Below are positions 5,076-11,261 of a DNA stretch of 35,029 nucleotides, piece by piece; position 1 is the stretch's first letter; each line of letters opens with the position of its first letter. Under the pieces are notes generated by a model. It was not told the DNA's origin. It saw only the letters and a program-made list of their open reading frames with translations, and ran no database searches. This stretch comes from a virus. Its lineage: Duplodnaviria; Heunggongvirae; Uroviricota; Caudoviricetes. The DNA is taken from the IMG/VR virus record IMGVR_UViG_2737471845_000031, positions 1 to 35,029 of that record; one strand, given 5' to 3'. The position numbers and the translations under genes were made by a program.

Positions 5076-5956
5076 ACACTCCTCGTCAGTATTCTGGCGG
5101 CCATTGCACTTAATCCCGGAGACATGCGGTTGAATGCTGTGCCGGCGGCGTTAAGCTGCCCGGAAACGGTATCCAGAGCACCTGCAATATTTCTTTTGTC
5201 CACACCACTCAGCGCCGACTGCGCCTGCTGTACATACGTGGCTGCCTCACTGGCTGTTCTGGCCAGACTGATGGCATCGGGCATGGATTCAGAGAGTGCA
5301 TTAAACGCCGGAATACTTTTCCCCAGAGCGCCGGATATATTACCCAGTCCGCTCATCAGTCCCGGCACACGGGTCAGCGCGACAACGGGGTTACCCTTCA
5401 TTTTCTGCGCCACCCGAACGGCACTGATAGTGGTCTGGAGTACAGACTGCGCCTGTTTCGCATAGTTGACGCCGTTACGGACGAACTGCGCCACCCCGGA
5501 AGGCGATGGAACAGCACCCGATACAGCTCCGGCACCGGGAACCTGCCTGCGTATTGCCGGCGGTTGCAGAGGATTTTTCGGGTCACCGGTGTATTCCCGG
5601 AGAGACACGGTGGCACTGACAGCCAGCACGTTACCGGTGCTGTCTGTCTGCTCGCTGGTTGCGGTCACATCGGTAATCACGAACCAGCCGCGATAGTCAC
5701 CGTTGCCGAAGACCAGCGCCAGTGCCTGATGGGCCTTCATGGCTGTTCGCACTCTCGCCAGCTCCACGTCGGGCACACAATAATGCTGATGGAAGACCAG
5801 GCTTATCTGGATTTCGTCCAGCCTGTCGCCGACAAACTGCAGGCCGGGTTTACCCTCGATGCGGGCATGCTCCGCATAATCGACGCCAAACGTGGCCTCG
5901 AAGCCGTCCCAGTAGGTAATCAGTTCAAACTCAATATCACCCAGTACGGCAAACAT
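5072..5956 (-). CDS. tail protein downstream of tape measure (Mu N / DNA-circulation-like position)
   Basis: 294-aa ORF directly after the tape measure gene with stop/start overlap; the Mu N position. Family assignment is tentative. Confidence 0.45.
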   Translation of the reverse strand: MFAVLGDIEFELITYWDGFEATFGVDYAEHARIEGKPGLQFVGDRLDEIQISLVFHQHYCVPDVELARVRTAMKAHQALALVFGNGDYRGWFVITDVTATSEQTDSTGNVLAVSATVSLREYTGDPKNPLQPPAIRRQVPGAGAVSGAVPSPSGVAQFVRNGVNYAKQAQSVLQTTISAVRVAQKMKGNPVVALTRVPGLMSGLGNISGALGKSIPAFNALSESMPDAISLARTASEAATYVQQAQSALSGVDKRNIAGALDTVSGQLNAAGTAFNRMSPGLSAMAARILTRSV

Positions 5957-8421
5957 CAGCTGTACTCCTTACGTTGTTTCTGAGCCAGCAGACGCTCCAG
6001 CATTTTTTCCAGCTCATGCAGGCTCATATTCAGGGCACCAGCCAGCCCGGCAGGCGCTGCGGTTTCCTTACCATTGAGGAAAAACTGAGGATTAAAGCTG
6101 ACCTGGATACCGCCAGACGCTCCACCGCCGGTTGCAGTTGCGCCACGGCCTGAATATCCGGCAGCCATGATTTCCGGCGACGGGATACGGGGAACATCCG
6201 GTGTCATTTCAGCGGCCAGGCGCTGCCCGGCCAGTGCAGCAAGCGGAGTGGTCCGTTGCAGGCCAATGGCGGCACCCTGCGCGATATTGTCACCAAAGCC
6301 TATAAACACGCGACTCGGTGAATGGATGCCCAGCTTTTCGCTGAACCAGTCACTGATGCTGTCACCCATTCCGGTTATGCTGGTTTTCAGTGACTCCCAT
6401 TTGTTTCTGATGCCATTTATCAGCCCGTCGATAAGATGACCACCGAAGTCGGTGAACTTCGCCGGCAAATCAACGCCGAGATATTTCAGCGCAGCCGCAA
6501 AGGCTTTATAAAGCAGACCCGCCGGAGACCAGTTAACCAGCAGTTTACCAATTCCCGCGATGCCGCCGTTAAAGGCTTCCTGAATGTCAGCCCAGCGCTG
6601 TTTAAACCAGCTACTGACTGCGCCCCAGTTGCGGTAGATAAGGTAAGCTGCTGCCGCGACGGCGGTGATAGCGAGACCGATGGGATTCATCATCAGCGCC
6701 CGGCCAATCCAGAGAAGGGCACGTGCAGCAATCATAAAACCGCGAACGAGGCTGCCCGCCAGAACTTTGCTGAGTTTCAGTCCTCCGCTGGCCAGCCGGC
6801 TGAATCCAGTGACAAGCCAGCGTAATTTGCCACCTTCTCCGAGTGCGGTAGTCAGTCGACGCCAGTTGGTCCGCAGTAAAACAGCATTTTTCCAGACGCT
6901 TACAAAGGGGGAAATAAGGAGATTCAGCCCAAGCTTGAGACCGATAGTGGCCATCCTGAAAGCGAGTAATGCGCCCACAACCTTTATGGTGCTGCTGACG
7001 AGCTGCGGATTTGCCGCTATCCATTTGCCGACGCTGTCCATTAAAGGAATAAATGTTTCACCCAACTGGAGCAAAGCCGGACGCAAGGATTGCCCGATGC
7101 TGATAGCAGAATCATTAAAGCCGATCTGCATTCTGCGCCAGCGACCTTCAAGCGTATCATTCTGCTTTGCAGCATCCTTATCCAGGGTAGACATTGCAGC
7201 CGGAGCATTCATTTCCTGCTTACTGGAAAGGTATTTATCCCAGCCCTGTCGCATTGACAGTAAATGGTTGACAGTCTGAATATCGGTAAAGACCTCAGCC
7301 AGACCAAATGACTCCATGAGTTTCTGCTGACCTTCCTGATCGCCTCTTGCTCCTGCAGCTTTCCATTGCTGCAAAAACGCTTTGCCTTTACTGTCGATAA
7401 AACGGTTGGCAATCATCAGTGAAGCTTCGTACTGCGAAAAACCCTGAGCGACGTAATTCTGCATTGACCCCTGGTAATCCACCCCGGCTTTAGCATATTT
7501 CTGGATGGTATCTCCGCGGCCCATTGCTGCCAGCCAGTTGGACATATTGGTGACCGCTTCCTCTGCAGAGCCACTACCTTTACCGACCTCCAGACTGGCA
7601 ACAATCTGGGTAATCGCATCTTTTCCATAAATGCCACGGGCAGCGAAGGCTTTAGCCATACCGGGTAATGCTTTTGCCATATCCTTCAGCTCAAATGACC
7701 CAAGTTTGGCTCCTGTTGCCGCAATACCAAATGCCTGTTCAAGTTCTTTCGCATCAGTGATTCTGAGTGCATCGCTGAAGGCATAAGTCATTTTGGCAAG
7801 GTCGGTCATATCGGCTTTGGTTGCTGTAGCGGTCTTTCCAAGCATCTCTGCAAACGTTGCTGCCCGTTCGGGGGCCATACCATCAGCAACTAATTGTCCG
7901 ACTCCCCCTAACAGAGACTCCTGCAGTTGGTTAACCTTCAGCGAGGCCTGTCTGATAGCCAGGCCAATTGCACGTTCCTGTTTTGCATCCAGGTCTCCTG
8001 TGACACTGATATCCCGTAACTGTGATTCAAACGAGGCATATTGTTTAACCGAGGCCATGACCGGTGCGCCCAGCGTTCTGCCAATAGCATAGGTTTCTGC
8101 ACCCTGACCATAGAGCGCCAGGCGGTTAGCCTTCAACGCATCACCGGTGGCTGATACTGCTGACAGACGGCGCTGCTGACGTTCAATTTGCTCCATGGTG
8201 CGGCTTACCCGCAGCAACTCGCTGTTGAGATGCTGCATCCGGGAAGAACCCAGTTGACCATAACGTTCTGTTGCCCGGGTTAAGGCATTCTGGCGTTCCT
8301 GCAGACGGCGGGAGGTATCACCAAGGGAATCAAGGGCGCGTCGGGTGCCACTGACGGCTGAGCGGAAGCTGCTCCCGACAATGCCGCCAATAATGACGCC
8401 GACTGAAAATTCACTGGCCAC
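5956..8421 (-). CDS. tail tape measure protein
   Basis: 821-aa ORF, the longest in the tail module, mostly helical/Ala-rich with hydrophobic segments; located after the chaperone gene. Start is GTG at 8421 (AGGA RBS). Confidence 0.85.
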   Translation of the reverse strand: MASEFSVGVIIGGIVGSSFRSAVSGTRRALDSLGDTSRRLQERQNALTRATERYGQLGSSRMQHLNSELLRVSRTMEQIERQQRRLSAVSATGDALKANRLALYGQGAETYAIGRTLGAPVMASVKQYASFESQLRDISVTGDLDAKQERAIGLAIRQASLKVNQLQESLLGGVGQLVADGMAPERAATFAEMLGKTATATKADMTDLAKMTYAFSDALRITDAKELEQAFGIAATGAKLGSFELKDMAKALPGMAKAFAARGIYGKDAITQIVASLEVGKGSGSAEEAVTNMSNWLAAMGRGDTIQKYAKAGVDYQGSMQNYVAQGFSQYEASLMIANRFIDSKGKAFLQQWKAAGARGDQEGQQKLMESFGLAEVFTDIQTVNHLLSMRQGWDKYLSSKQEMNAPAAMSTLDKDAAKQNDTLEGRWRRMQIGFNDSAISIGQSLRPALLQLGETFIPLMDSVGKWIAANPQLVSSTIKVVGALLAFRMATIGLKLGLNLLISPFVSVWKNAVLLRTNWRRLTTALGEGGKLRWLVTGFSRLASGGLKLSKVLAGSLVRGFMIAARALLWIGRALMMNPIGLAITAVAAAAYLIYRNWGAVSSWFKQRWADIQEAFNGGIAGIGKLLVNWSPAGLLYKAFAAALKYLGVDLPAKFTDFGGHLIDGLINGIRNKWESLKTSITGMGDSISDWFSEKLGIHSPSRVFIGFGDNIAQGAAIGLQRTTPLAALAGQRLAAEMTPDVPRIPSPEIMAAGYSGRGATATGGGASGGIQVSFNPQFFLNGKETAAPAGLAGALNMSLHELEKMLERLLAQKQRKEYS

Positions 8422-8513
8422 GGTGGCTATCCTCTGAAAGCAAAAAAACGGAAGGGAAGTGTCTGAACCCCATGCAGAACAGCCGCGACTGGCGGCTGTT
8501 AAGTGATACGTTG

Positions 8514-8771
8514 TTACTGATTGTCGCCGAACTCGCTTTTGATTTGCTCTTCAGCCTGCTCCAGCCACATCTCCAGATCGTCAGTATCGAGGGCATCAAT
8601 CTCCCCCGGCTGAAACCTGAACCATCTCGCCAGCAGGCCCTGCGCCTGCATCAGTGTTTTTGTCGCTCTTGCCCAGCCCAGTGATTTTCTGAAATCGTTT
8701 CTGCAGCTCCATATAGTCGGCAAGATCCATGTTATCGAGGTCTTCCGGGAGGATACCGGTGCTACGGGCAA
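8514..8771 (-). CDS. putative frameshift extension of the tail assembly chaperone (E'-like)
   Basis: Second ORF overlapping the 3' 176 nt of the chaperone gene. Frame opens at 8771 directly after a stop, has no ATG, and encodes an acidic tail (DDLEMWLEQAEEQIKSEFGDNQ). It is in the +1 frame relative to the chaperone. Confidence 0.3.
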   Translation of the reverse strand: MPVAPVSSRKTSITWILPTIWSCRNDFRKSLGWARATKTLMQAQGLLARWFRFQPGEIDALDTDDLEMWLEQAEEQIKSEFGDNQ

Positions 8772-8937
8772 TCAGTGGTTCGTCCCAGTCTGCCGGGTCT
8801 TTGTTGATTTTGCGCACCTGCTTCAGGTCTTTTACTGTCAGGCGTTTCAGTTCAATCTGTTCAATTCTGGTACCTGCAGCAGTGGTGAAAGGATAAGACA
8901 GCGTAAAAGTATCGGACTGGGTCTGTGACATGATCAT
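8596..8937 (-). CDS. tail assembly chaperone (P2 gpE / Mu gp41-like)
   Basis: 113-aa ORF between tube and tape measure genes; ATG 8937 with AAGGAG RBS; sequence pattern LKRLTVKDLKQV...ADYMELQKRF typical of this chaperone family. Confidence 0.65.
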   Translation of the reverse strand: MIMSQTQSDTFTLSYPFTTAAGTRIEQIELKRLTVKDLKQVRKINKDPADWDEPLIARSTGILPEDLDNMDLADYMELQKRFQKITGLGKSDKNTDAGAGPAGEMVQVSAGGD

Positions 8938-9028
8938 ACTCCTTTGTAAATTCAGAGCAGTATGTCTGGCGGTGGACGTGACGGATATTAAAGGAGATTA
9001 AGAAGAAGGGGCCGGAGCCCCTGTGATG

Positions 9029-9310
9029 TCAGCAAGTGCGAAAACCCTTGCAGTTACGCAGGAAAGCGATGAGAAGCGCCTTTCCCTCAGATTTGCCGAT
9101 GCCGGAGAACCAGTGGTCGGGCGGCTCCCATGCTTCAATCAAATCGGCCAGTTTGCGGGCCTTTGAACGTGTGCAGTCAATCGGGTCATTGGTTTTACGG
9201 GTATTAAAAAGGGTTTCCACCCCCGGAATATCAAGGAGGGTAAACCACGTACCATTTGACATGCCCAGTGACGCACATCGCCCTCCTTTGTCAGTCAGTT
9301 CAACACTCAC
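9029..9310 (-). CDS. hypothetical protein (small gene between tube and chaperone)
   Basis: 93-aa ORF, GTG start 2 nt after the tube stop with a CGGGGG RBS, followed by a GGGGC/GCCCC hairpin. No recognisable family. Confidence 0.35.
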   Translation of the reverse strand: MSVELTDKGGRCASLGMSNGTWFTLLDIPGVETLFNTRKTNDPIDCTRSKARKLADLIEAWEPPDHWFSGIGKSEGKALLIAFLRNCKGFRTC

Positions 9311-9312
9311 CG

Positions 9313-9834
9313 TCAGCCCCCGATATTGATCCGATAGTCAGTCAGTTGATCAACGCCACCGACGCGGAAGATGTTGGCCAGATAGTCCAGTTGCAGCAAC
9401 TCTTCACCATCCAGTACCTGTCTGATATACGTGCAGGTGAAGCTACTGGAGAACTCGGCGTTCTCGTGCTGTTTAAACGTCCCCAGCGGGTTCTTCTTGA
9501 ACATAATTGTCAGGAAGGTGACCAGCGGGATTTCGTCGATCAGCCCCTGCGAGCTGTAGCGCTGGACGCTGGAGCGACACTGCAGCGCCAGCGACTTGTA
9601 CGGGTTCGCGGCAGACAGCATCGCATCGCGGTAAAAGCTGTTCCATTTGATTTCGCCTTCCAGTTTGTCAAAACCAGCCGGGAGTTCCACCTTACCCACC
9701 ATCCCCAGTGCCTTGTGTTCCTGCATAATCATGGAGACATCGGGGAGTTTAACCTCCTCAGCCCGTCCCAGCAGGTTAGTACCATCCAGATAGATGTTGG
9801 CATTCGTGATTCGGTTTATCTCAATCTTTGACAT
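9313..9834 (-). CDS. major tail tube protein
   Basis: 173-aa ORF immediately after the sheath gene (TGATG stop/start overlap); C-terminal region ...YIRQVLDGEELLQLDYLANIFRVGGVD... resembles P2 FII-type tube proteins. Confidence 0.8.
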   Translation of the reverse strand: MSKIEINRITNANIYLDGTNLLGRAEEVKLPDVSMIMQEHKALGMVGKVELPAGFDKLEGEIKWNSFYRDAMLSAANPYKSLALQCRSSVQRYSSQGLIDEIPLVTFLTIMFKKNPLGTFKQHENAEFSSSFTCTYIRQVLDGEELLQLDYLANIFRVGGVDQLTDYRINIGG

Positions 9835-11261
9835 CAGTTGCCCCCTTTCAGGGTTAACAGGTATTCCGAGGTGATCTCAGTCTCAAACGTCAGTCGCTCC
9901 AGCGGCGGTGGTGGCGTATATTTGTAGCTCAGCAACAGGTGCCCGGCGGCCAGCTCCGTTTCCGGATTGCGGGCCGGATCAAACCAGCAACGGAAGCCCA
10001 GTACCGCGCCATCACCAGTCATTTTGCGACCGTAGGCGTTGACCGACTCCGTCAGTGCATCAATCAGCGCCTGAGTAATCGGCATGTCGATGTACTGCTG
10101 GCTGAAGTAACGAATGGACTCATTGATCACATCACCGGTGCGGCGAACGTTCTCAAAGTTACGCATATGGGTGACCGTTGGCCATGCTGCCGTCCGGTTA
10201 CCCCACAGACGAAGGCCGCTGCCGTAACTGCTGAATACCGTGGTGATCCCCTGTTCGTTAAGCAGGTTCACCTCGCTCTGCGGATCGTCAATCATTGCCG
10301 ACAGCTGGCGCTCCACGCCGGTGATCCCCAGAATTTCCTGATTGGAGGATGACCACCAGTACCCTTTGTCCAGGTCGACTTTGGCACGCAGGCCCGCCGC
10401 ACGCTGGCTCAGTGGCTCCAGACGTTCCGTGTTCGTCACCGGGTCATATACCTTCACATGCGGGTAGCACAGGCGGACACGGTCAGAGCTGGTATTAAAG
10501 TTAATGGTGCCTTCCGGGCCTCGTCCCGCCAGAGCCTGCGCAAAAGTGGTACCAACCGGCGCATCAATATAGGTTACTGCTCCCAGTTTCTCAGCCATGG
10601 CGATAAGCTCAACCGAGACGCTGTTCTGGGTGCAGAATACCGGAGCAATCAGGATTTTGGCGAAGTAGCCAAACAGGTTAAAACTGTCGTTAAGCAGCTT
10701 CATGCCGGTACGGTTGCCTGCAGCGTTAACGGTACCGATGATATCAGCCGGGGTGACTTTGGTCGGATCAGCATAGTTATAGCTGGCCTTCACCGTTGCA
10801 TCTGCAGCAATGCTTTTACCCAGGTTAGTAATCACCCCGGTCTGTGCATCAAGCGAGTAGTCCTGACCTTCAACATAAGGCTGACCGTCGCTGTCCGGTT
10901 TCAGTACCAGCTGCGCGACCACCGGATTAGCCAGCCGGGCTCTGCCTGTCGCCTTGTCGAACGACACATTCTCACTGACCACAGCGGTTTTATGCACAGA
11001 CGGATCGAGTACGTTAATGACCAGAACGGTGCCTGCACCATGGTCATAAATCGCATCCAGCGCCTGTGGAATGGTAAAGCCGGTGAACTGGCTGCCAAAT
11101 GCCGCAGCGTCTTTCTCAGACAGGCACTGTACCAGCGTATTGACATCCCCCATTGGTGCGGTACCAATCAGGCCAATAACGGCAGATTTCACCGTTTTAA
11201 CCGGGCGGGCACCGTTTTCCACTTCAATGGTTTCCGGACCATGCAGATAGTTAGCTGACAT
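9834..11261 (-). CDS. tail sheath protein
   Basis: 475-aa ORF with GGAGG RBS, located upstream of the tube gene; size and position characteristic of contractile-tail sheath proteins. Confidence 0.85.
   Translation of the reverse strand: MSANYLHGPETIEVENGARPVKTVKSAVIGLIGTAPMGDVNTLVQCLSEKDAAAFGSQFTGFTIPQALDAIYDHGAGTVLVINVLDPSVHKTAVVSENVSFDKATGRARLANPVVAQLVLKPDSDGQPYVEGQDYSLDAQTGVITNLGKSIAADATVKASYNYADPTKVTPADIIGTVNAAGNRTGMKLLNDSFNLFGYFAKILIAPVFCTQNSVSVELIAMAEKLGAVTYIDAPVGTTFAQALAGRGPEGTINFNTSSDRVRLCYPHVKVYDPVTNTERLEPLSQRAAGLRAKVDLDKGYWWSSSNQEILGITGVERQLSAMIDDPQSEVNLLNEQGITTVFSSYGSGLRLWGNRTAAWPTVTHMRNFENVRRTGDVINESIRYFSQQYIDMPITQALIDALTESVNAYGRKMTGDGAVLGFRCWFDPARNPETELAAGHLLLSYKYTPPPPLERLTFETEITSEYLLTLKGGN

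Follow-up and report, generated by a model that had tools for sequence, protein, structure and literature searches.

The window analyzed here is a stretch of 35,029 nucleotides (IMG/VR virus record IMGVR_UViG_2737471845_000031, positions 1 to 35,029) from an Escherichia coli prophage, a BcepMu-like (Bcepmuvirus-like) transposable myophage. Among its tail genes, the open reading frame (ORF) of a tail assembly chaperone is overlapped by a second ORF. From comparison with related loci, we consider it quite probable that this overlap is a conserved, unannotated programmed +1 frameshift that extends the chaperone, most likely at the sequence UUU_C (8694-8691). Tail chaperones extended by a frameshift are textbook knowledge for long-tailed phages; the shift is -1 in lambda, and +1 is the less common direction for this expected feature. 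All genes and coordinates in the chaperone region refer to the minus strand. The chaperone frame is called frame 0 and the extension E' below. The features of the overlap are as follows.

8596-8937, minus strand: tail assembly chaperone ORF, gpE-like, frame 0, 113 amino acids (Pfam Phage_TAC_7)
8514-8771, minus strand: overlapping mechanical ORF of 85 amino acids with a TTG start (ORF list and three-frame translation)
8514-8690, minus strand: putative coding segment of E', frame +1, 58 codons followed by a stop (8514-8516)
8695-8771, minus strand: 5' part of the +1-frame ORF, apparently open by chance and untranslated in that frame (from stops in relatives and divergence)
8689-8697, minus strand: proposed frameshift cassette CGA_UUU_CAG, with CGA at 8697-8695, UUU at 8694-8692 and CAG at 8691-8689

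An extension in the +1 frame

Relatives of the locus were gathered from genome and viral contig collections in two alignment-based scans, and annotated phages were added. About 150 related loci were obtained from Enterobacterales, Pseudomonas, Ralstonia and Burkholderia. The first set comprised 78 unique sequences and the second, more divergent set 76 loci; 73 enterobacterial relatives were aligned codon by codon. Escherichia phage PhiKM (Bcepmuvirus) showed 94% identity over 85% of the first 25 kb of the window, and Klebsiella phage KP12 and Escherichia phage Phi06_2974 B showed 85-86% identity to it. Of 5,426 complete E. coli genomes, 637 carried the 561-nt chaperone region.

Excluded from the counts were L182, in which E' was not detected, and the IMG/VR contigs L152, L154 and L155, which have a truncated chaperone. 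In these three contigs the chaperone is cut right after DLADSKAL and unrelated sequence follows, with no E'. The break, a few codons 5' of the usual site of the shift, looks like the result of a recombination or deletion.

The chaperone ORF matches Pfam PF10109 (Phage_TAC_7) with 79.8 bits against a cut-off of 25 (E=1.5e-22). Its product would have 113 amino acids from the ATG at 8937 and 111 from the ATG at 8931 (MSQTQ...). The latter is most likely the true start, because it lies 7 nt from AAGGAG, a better spacing, because the Prokaryotic Genome Annotation Pipeline (PGAP) chose it at an identical locus, and because homologues start with MSQTQ. Frame 0 ends at 8596-8598 in the window, and at codon 92, 96, 106, 108, 111 or 113 in the first-set relatives.

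In three-frame translation, the 85-amino-acid ORF at 8514-8771 lies in the +1 (equivalently -2) frame of the chaperone, and therefore a -1 slip is unable to join the two ORFs. This agrees with the original prediction, which had described an overlap in the +1 frame that a canonical -1 slip would not bridge. The coding part of this ORF appears to be its 3' part only (8514-8690). Upstream of it, in 8695-8771, relatives have +1-frame stops at codons 59, 72 and 76, and the divergence in frame +1 is 0.40-0.50 for amino acids and about 0.10 for synonymous changes. The E' segment consists of a linker with an invariant Trp followed by a GpE-like domain, LLARWFRFQPGEIDALDTDDLEMWLEQAEEQIK. The extension (LLARWFRFQPGEID...) is similar to P2 GpE/E', and its C-terminus is acidic (EIDALDTDDLEMWLEQAEEQIKSEFGDNQ), in line with the acidic tail that had been thought plausible.

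The frame of E' was nearly constant among the relatives. In the first set, essentially all members have ...GW.....AQGLLARWFRFQPGEIDALDTDDLEMWLEQAEEQIKSEFGDNQ* in frame +1, and E' is in the +1 frame in all 78 sequences except L025 and L109, in which an indel fuses E' into frame 0, and L029, which was not scored. When a hidden Markov model (HMM) of the E' domain was applied to the second set, E' was placed in the +1 frame in 75 of the 76 loci; the exception was a genome copy with a fusing indel. The same arrangement is found in BcepMu, phiE255, Pseudomonas phage Komp_PAO1_1, Ralstonia phage YO107_2 and a Salmonella prophage. E' lies in the -1 frame in Pasteurella phage AFS-2018a, Vibrio phage Valp1 and P2. 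The ORF in the -1 frame varies from 0 to 83 codons among the first-set relatives. Substitutions in the extension region of the relatives are synonymous in frame +1.

The loci with chaperone and E' brought into one frame by an indel are L025, from Apirhabdus apintestini, and L109/L188, from IMG/VR. The indel of L025 lies upstream of the UUU codon. These are possibly degraded prophages.

By sequence, the extension is homologous to P2 E'. An alignment of E' segments matched P2 E' in hhalign with a probability of 78.6% (E=1.7e-5). In BLASTP, the predicted fusion matched P2 E+E' weakly and in the E' part only (E=0.023). Pfam PF06528 (Phage_P2_GpE) gave 17.4 bits on the window fusion, below its cut-off of 23, with profile positions 4-36 of 37 aligned; it matched 8 of 19 predicted fusions at E<=0.01, P2 itself among them. 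The NCBIfam scan of both ORFs gave no match. The homology with P2 E', the constant +1 frame and the lack of a conserved start of its own lend support to the idea, put forward in the original prediction, that the chaperone would have a frameshifted extension.

The lack of a conserved start bears on another explanation, in which no recoding takes place and E' is a separate protein of about 45 amino acids made by independent initiation inside the overlap. The window has an internal +1-frame ATG at codon 96, and PGAP calls a 45-46-amino-acid 'GpE family' protein from such an ATG in two E. coli genomes. However, this ATG is present in just 39 of the 73 relatives (the others have ACG, ATT, ACA or CGT), and the Burkholderia and Pseudomonas relatives have no start at a conserved position. 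No Shine-Dalgarno (SD) sequence precedes the internal ATG, and the constraint on frame +1, the invariant Trp included, starts about 8 codons 5' of it. Moreover, the homologous E' of P2 is made solely as the E+E' fusion (PMC3931495). We regard independent initiation as decidedly unlikely.

The point of the frame change

Synonymous and amino-acid divergence were tabulated per codon in both frames over the 73 aligned enterobacterial relatives.

Codons 60-80: frame 0, synonymous 0.39 and amino-acid 0.14; frame +1, synonymous 0.10 and amino-acid 0.43
Codons 81-82 (CGA UUU): frame 0, synonymous 0.014 and amino-acid 0.0; frame +1, synonymous 0.0 and amino-acid 0.014
Codons 95-106: frame 0, synonymous 0.054 and amino-acid 0.211; frame +1, synonymous 0.209 and amino-acid 0.096
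Codons 107-113: frame 0, synonymous 0.0 and amino-acid 0.347; frame +1, synonymous 0.205 and amino-acid 0.062

Purifying selection passes from frame 0 to frame +1 at codons 81-82, where the sole variation is one CGG among the 73 sequences. The first strongly constrained residue in frame +1 is the invariant Trp at codon 88, 3-6 codons 3' of the site. The Gly that precedes this Trp is encoded by all four of its codons, and therefore frame +1 is already read at that point.

Stop codons in the relatives limit the shift to an interval of about 10 codons. On the 5' side, the limit comes from 13 loci in which frame +1 has a stop 4 codons ahead of the Phe codon. On the 3' side, the group L130-L137 has a frame-0 stop 7 codons past it (UUU CGC AGC AUG GUG GAC AAC UGA). 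Within this interval, UUU followed by C is the sole universal feature: the codon is TTT in 123 of 123 unique loci, the next base is C in all of them, and CGA TTT CAG is also present in three additional loci that had escaped the search pattern. The residue after Phe may be Q, R, L or H, and yet the first base of its codon is always C, which indicates a constraint at the nucleotide level. In the high-GC relatives UUU is the minority Phe codon (16-37%), so that its fixation there is not due to codon bias. Related prophages had been named in the original prediction as a means of checking it, and in these the downstream +1 frame is conserved together with UUU_C.

In the enteric branch the codon before UUU is an Arg codon, CGA in 91 loci and CGG in 2, while CGA makes up just 5% of the Arg codons in the window phage. 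The other branches have [U/G/A]C[C/U]_UUU_CG[C/G/U] or GUG_UUU_CGG at this place.

Where a +1 or -2 event had been predicted anywhere within 8599-8771, the sequence evidence points to UUU_C at 8694-8691. A +1 slip there fits the re-pairing rules; for a -2 slip no re-pairing is possible. A P-site +1 slip is proposed because tRNA-Phe can re-pair on UUC and because shift sites with UUU have been published (PMC5009743). Most ribosomes would stay in frame 0 and terminate at 8596-8598, and a minority would shift at CGA_UUU_C. The peptidyl-tRNA-Phe (anticodon GAA) would quit UUU (8694-8692), where it forms a G.U wobble, and re-pair with the Watson-Crick codon UUC (8693-8691). Alternatively, Phe-tRNA might bind UUC out of frame, with an identical product. 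Reading would then resume at AGA (8690-8688) and go on in the +1 frame to 8514. The conserved rare CGA could act through a weak I.A wobble pair in the E or P site. We infer from the comparisons that the ribosome does shift at UUU_C, at some efficiency, and that the preceding CGA may have a role in it.

The fusion product would read ...ELQKRF-RKSLGWARATKTLMQAQGLLARWFRFQPGEID... and have 140 amino acids from the first ATG, or 138 from the likely start. It would join the TAC_7 domain (residues 10-86), a linker of about 15 amino acids with the invariant Trp, and the GpE-like E' domain (102-134). If lambda and P2 are a guide, both forms of the chaperone, short and long, would jointly cover the tape measure and bring in tube subunits, and both would be absent from the virion.

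Several observations weigh against a shift at UUU_C. The codon before UUU differs by clade (CGA in enterics; NCC, NCU or GUG elsewhere), so that a context effect common to all is not evident. The 0-frame A-site codon CAG is a common Gln codon (84% in the window phage), and a slow-decoding A-site codon, rare or stop, was not seen at UUU_C; in the high-GC relatives the next 0-frame codon is CGC or CGG. No SD-like element was found close upstream of UUU_C. The downstream region (140 nt, 8560-8700) folded no better than shuffled sequences (minimum free energy z=-0.8), and there was no Rfam match in 8300-9400. As the sequences are phylogenetically related, the locus counts are not independent trials. 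Finally, the four +1-frame residues just past UUU_C vary; codon 86, for instance, gives L, R, Q or P. For the enteric clade taken alone, conservation by itself would also be compatible with a shift a few codons 3' of UUU_C, such as at GGG_N before UGG.

At such a site, ACN_GGG_N before the +1-frame UGG (8682-8678), tRNA-Gly would move +1 from GGG to GGN and give ...ITG-WAR.... GGG, though not a preferred Gly codon, is present in 72 of the 73 enteric relatives; the residues that frame +1 encodes from Phe up to Trp vary; and two database fusions (P0076, P0086) have this junction. The motif is, however, absent from the BcepMu, Pseudomonas and Ralstonia relatives, in which the +1-frame Trp follows AGC AUG G or CUG GUG G, and Brenneria alni has GGC. 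Any of C, A, U or G follows GGG, so that re-pairing is not conserved. The coding of Gly-Trp in frame +1 accounts for the conservation of GGG, and a shift here gives no account of the invariance of CGA and UUU_C. We therefore consider ACN_GGG_N an unlikely site.

A more conspicuous slippery run lies further 3', near the frame-0 stop.

8603-8607, minus strand: G5 run (GCC GGG GGA GAU UGA), apparent slippery run, not a conserved shift site

Here either tRNA-Gly could shift +1 from GGG to GGG or a -2 shift like that of Mu could occur, giving ...VSAG-EIDAL.... Re-pairing would be perfect, a stop codon stands two codons 3', Mu likewise uses a G-run (CGG_GGG_CGA), and many 138-amino-acid ORFs in the databases have exactly this junction (P0010, P0011, P0017). 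Against this, TAG at codon 107 closes frame 0 four codons 5' of the run in 37 of the 73 relatives; others end frame 0 at codon 92 or 96, or 7 codons past the Phe codon; and the run is missing from the Brenneria, Salmonella-type and Burkholderia relatives. Purifying selection acts on frame +1 already about 25 codons 5' of the run, and the product would be without LLARWFRFQP, the half of the GpE domain with the strongest conservation. The fusions in the databases most likely stem from deletions of 1 nt in homopolymers; other fusions join at A5, G3 or G4 runs. A shift at the G5 run is thus very improbable.

The proteins P0010, P0011, P0014-P0017 and P0028 come from independent public assemblies with a deletion from G5 to G4 and have the junction VSAG|EIDAL. 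These deletions are probably homopolymer sequencing errors; they may also be a real polymorphism. The 'fused' database proteins (138-144 amino acids) were considered as a guide to the junction and rejected. Their junctions are scattered over at least 5 homopolymers, and therefore the fusions look like indel errors. The A5 run (GAC AAA AAC, 8661-8665) was rejected as a slip site, as it is not conserved.

The fused ORFs bear on one more explanation, namely that RNA polymerase drops one base by transcriptional slippage, or that the locus is a pseudogene with a frameshift mutation. In favor of either, public assemblies carry ORFs fused by 1-nt homopolymer deletions, and the L025 and L109 genomes carry fused versions. 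Yet no homopolymer in the permitted interval is longer than 3-4 nt, which is far below what polymerase slippage requires. The split arrangement is kept in about 150 loci of several bacterial orders, with purifying selection on both parts. This explanation has hardly any probability.

Comparison with other tail chaperones and shift sites

Shifts of -1, -2 and +1 are all on record for tail chaperones (PMC5009743), and 350 forward shifts have been annotated in actinophage chaperones (PMC10885494). In P2, gpE and gpE+E' are produced by a programmed -1 frameshift at T6G (GGU_UUU_UUG), reported as experimentally established (Christie et al. 2002, as cited in PMC3931495).

The P2 pair resembles the window pair in several respects. 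It is flanked by FII, the tube gene, and T, the tape-measure gene, it consists of the two Pfam modules TAC_7 and P2_GpE, and its E' has no independent start. P2 E+E' has 142 amino acids with the domains at 7-85 and 104-139, against 140 amino acids with 10-86 and 102-134 for the predicted window fusion. The P2 shift, like the one proposed here, falls on a UUU codon for Phe at the C-terminal edge of TAC_7. On the other hand, the shift is -1 in P2 and would be +1 in the window; P2 uses a tandem slip on U_UUU_UUG, and a single P-site slip on UUU_C is proposed here; and the GpE match of the window is under the Pfam cut-off. In Pfam coordinates, about 3 positions separate the two Phe codons. In hhalign, the chaperone alignment matched single-sequence P2 gpE at the N-terminus alone, with a probability of 0.7%, and therefore the exact homology of the two Phe columns is not demonstrable. 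A -1 shift of the P2 type (T6G or X_XXY_YYZ) was ruled out for the window, as its extension is in the +1 frame and it has no T6 run. Vibrio phage Valp1 has a canonical G_GGU_UUU heptamer on a Phe codon that is likewise at the C-terminal edge of TAC_7, within about 3 positions of the window Phe.

The tail chaperone gp41 of phage Mu is extended by a -2 frameshift (PMC5009743). Mu is also a transposable myophage; its chaperone gene likewise lies between those of tube and tape measure, and its extension is in the +1/-2 frame. However, Mu shifts on CGG_GGG_CGA, 8 codons before its stop, whereas the G-run of the window is in another phase and dispensable in relatives. Mu gp41 belongs to Pfam Gp41_Mu (PF23746), to which the window chaperone gave no match in the Pfam scan, and the Mu extension has no obvious similarity to E'. 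A -2 shift of the Mu type was ruled out for the window: the G5 run is out of phase and lies 3' of the frame-0 stop in 37 of the 73 relatives, and the PF23746 match is lacking.

Shift sites with UUU include the apparent site of the Yersinia YopN-TyeA fusion and the influenza A PA-X cassette UCC_UUU_CGU (PMC5009743). These and the activator of an integrative and conjugative element (ICE) with a UUU shift site share with the window a P-site UUU followed by a pyrimidine, where tRNA-Phe can re-pair on UUC. The context in the Burkholderia and Pseudomonas relatives, [U/G/A]C[C/U]_UUU_CG[C/G/U], is almost the PA-X cassette. The window differs in that it has no rare or slow A-site codon and in that its putative shift would set a structural chaperone ratio and not serve regulation.

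BcepMu (GenBank AY539836) is the type species of the genus of the window's nearest relative. Its gp41 is a TAC_7 chaperone, and its gp42 is the homologous extension in the +1 frame. In the AY539836 record (L004, 4208-4969), gp42 is labelled the analogue of lambda G and gp43 its slippage product. Our comparison indicates that gp41 would be extended into gp42 by a +1 shift at UCC_UUU_C, rather than gp42 into gp43. Later Burkholderia phage records annotate the chaperone alone; phiE255 and vB_E274 annotate a minus-strand ORF where BcepMu gp43 lies.

As a tentative and on balance doubtful idea, the BcepMu-like clade might have fixed a dedicated, context-dependent +1 cassette, CGA_UUU_C in enterics (with a rare I.A-wobble codon in the E site) and NCC_UUU_CGN, in essence that of PA-X, in Burkholderia, Pseudomonas and related hosts. 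The Phe codon that ends TAC_7 would then be a -1 site in P2-like phages and a +1 site here, the direction having flipped while the site stayed.

Gene order, annotation and meaning

The genes around the overlap are in the order sheath, tube, chaperone and tape measure, as the original prediction had it, and the Pfam matches to sheath, tube, TAC_7 and PhageMin_Tail agree.

9834-11261, minus strand: sheath gene (Pfam Phage_sheath domains)
9313-9834, minus strand: tail tube gene, FII-like, upstream neighbor of the chaperone region (Pfam Phage_tube, 181 bits)
9029-9310, minus strand: small ORF of 93 amino acids with a GTG start (DUF7739, sub-threshold at 25.7 bits against a cut-off of 27)
5956-8421, minus strand: tape measure gene, downstream neighbor (Pfam PhageMin_Tail; tape measure annotation in relatives)
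Downstream of the tape measure gene, minus strand: gpU-like and gpX-like genes (Pfam scan)

The pair of chaperone and extension thus sits between tube and tape measure, with one extra small ORF (9029-9310) intervening. This small ORF is kept in KP12, PhiKM and E. coli prophages; BcepMu has a 120-nt gap there. Directly 3' of it, within the tail operon in the interval between tube and chaperone, lies a terminator-like hairpin (9007-9022, minus strand; AGGGGCTCCGGCCCCT followed by TCTTCTT). It could reduce read-through toward the genes for chaperone and tape measure. Past the E' stop and before the start of the tape-measure gene there is a second hairpin with a 7-bp stem (8480-8498, minus strand; CAGCCGC-loop-GCGGCTG). 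In four close relatives its stem is retained and its loop differs, and it has no U-tract.

No frameshift is annotated at this locus in any record examined (phage genomes including BcepMu, and RefSeq E. coli genomes). What the records show is the chaperone by itself, an isolated 'GpE family' mini-ORF or a 'pseudogene with internal stop'. For example, PGAP gives a 111-amino-acid 'phage tail assembly protein' at an identical E. coli locus, a separate 'GpE family phage tail protein' of 45-46 amino acids from the internal ATG in two E. coli genomes and, in one case, a chaperone labelled as a pseudogene with an internal stop.

A widespread variant in E. coli ST131-type prophages (L009, L077 and L078; protein P0061; 914 contigs) has chaperone codon 93 changed from CAG to TAG and is flagged as a pseudogene by PGAP. 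With a shift at UUU_C, both products would still arise in this variant, the chaperone being 21 amino acids shorter. The frame-0 tail of the chaperone past the TAC_7 domain seems dispensable.

No +1 site in BcepMu-like phages was found described in the literature searched, and within that literature the site of this clade appears to be undescribed. The kind of system, a frameshift-extended tail chaperone, is already well known; the BcepMu-like +1 site adds a member to it and will not surprise a specialist. We regard the site as the E. coli prophage counterpart of P2 E/E+E' and lambda G/GT. It would be a natural, widely conserved candidate for a bacterial +1 site that works without a stop or rare A-site codon and has an unusually conserved rare codon in the E site. 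A simple rule, UUU_C at the end of TAC_7 with a +1 shift, would let annotators join both ORFs correctly. In tailocins or phages engineered from this tail module, the proportion between short and long chaperone would have to be kept.

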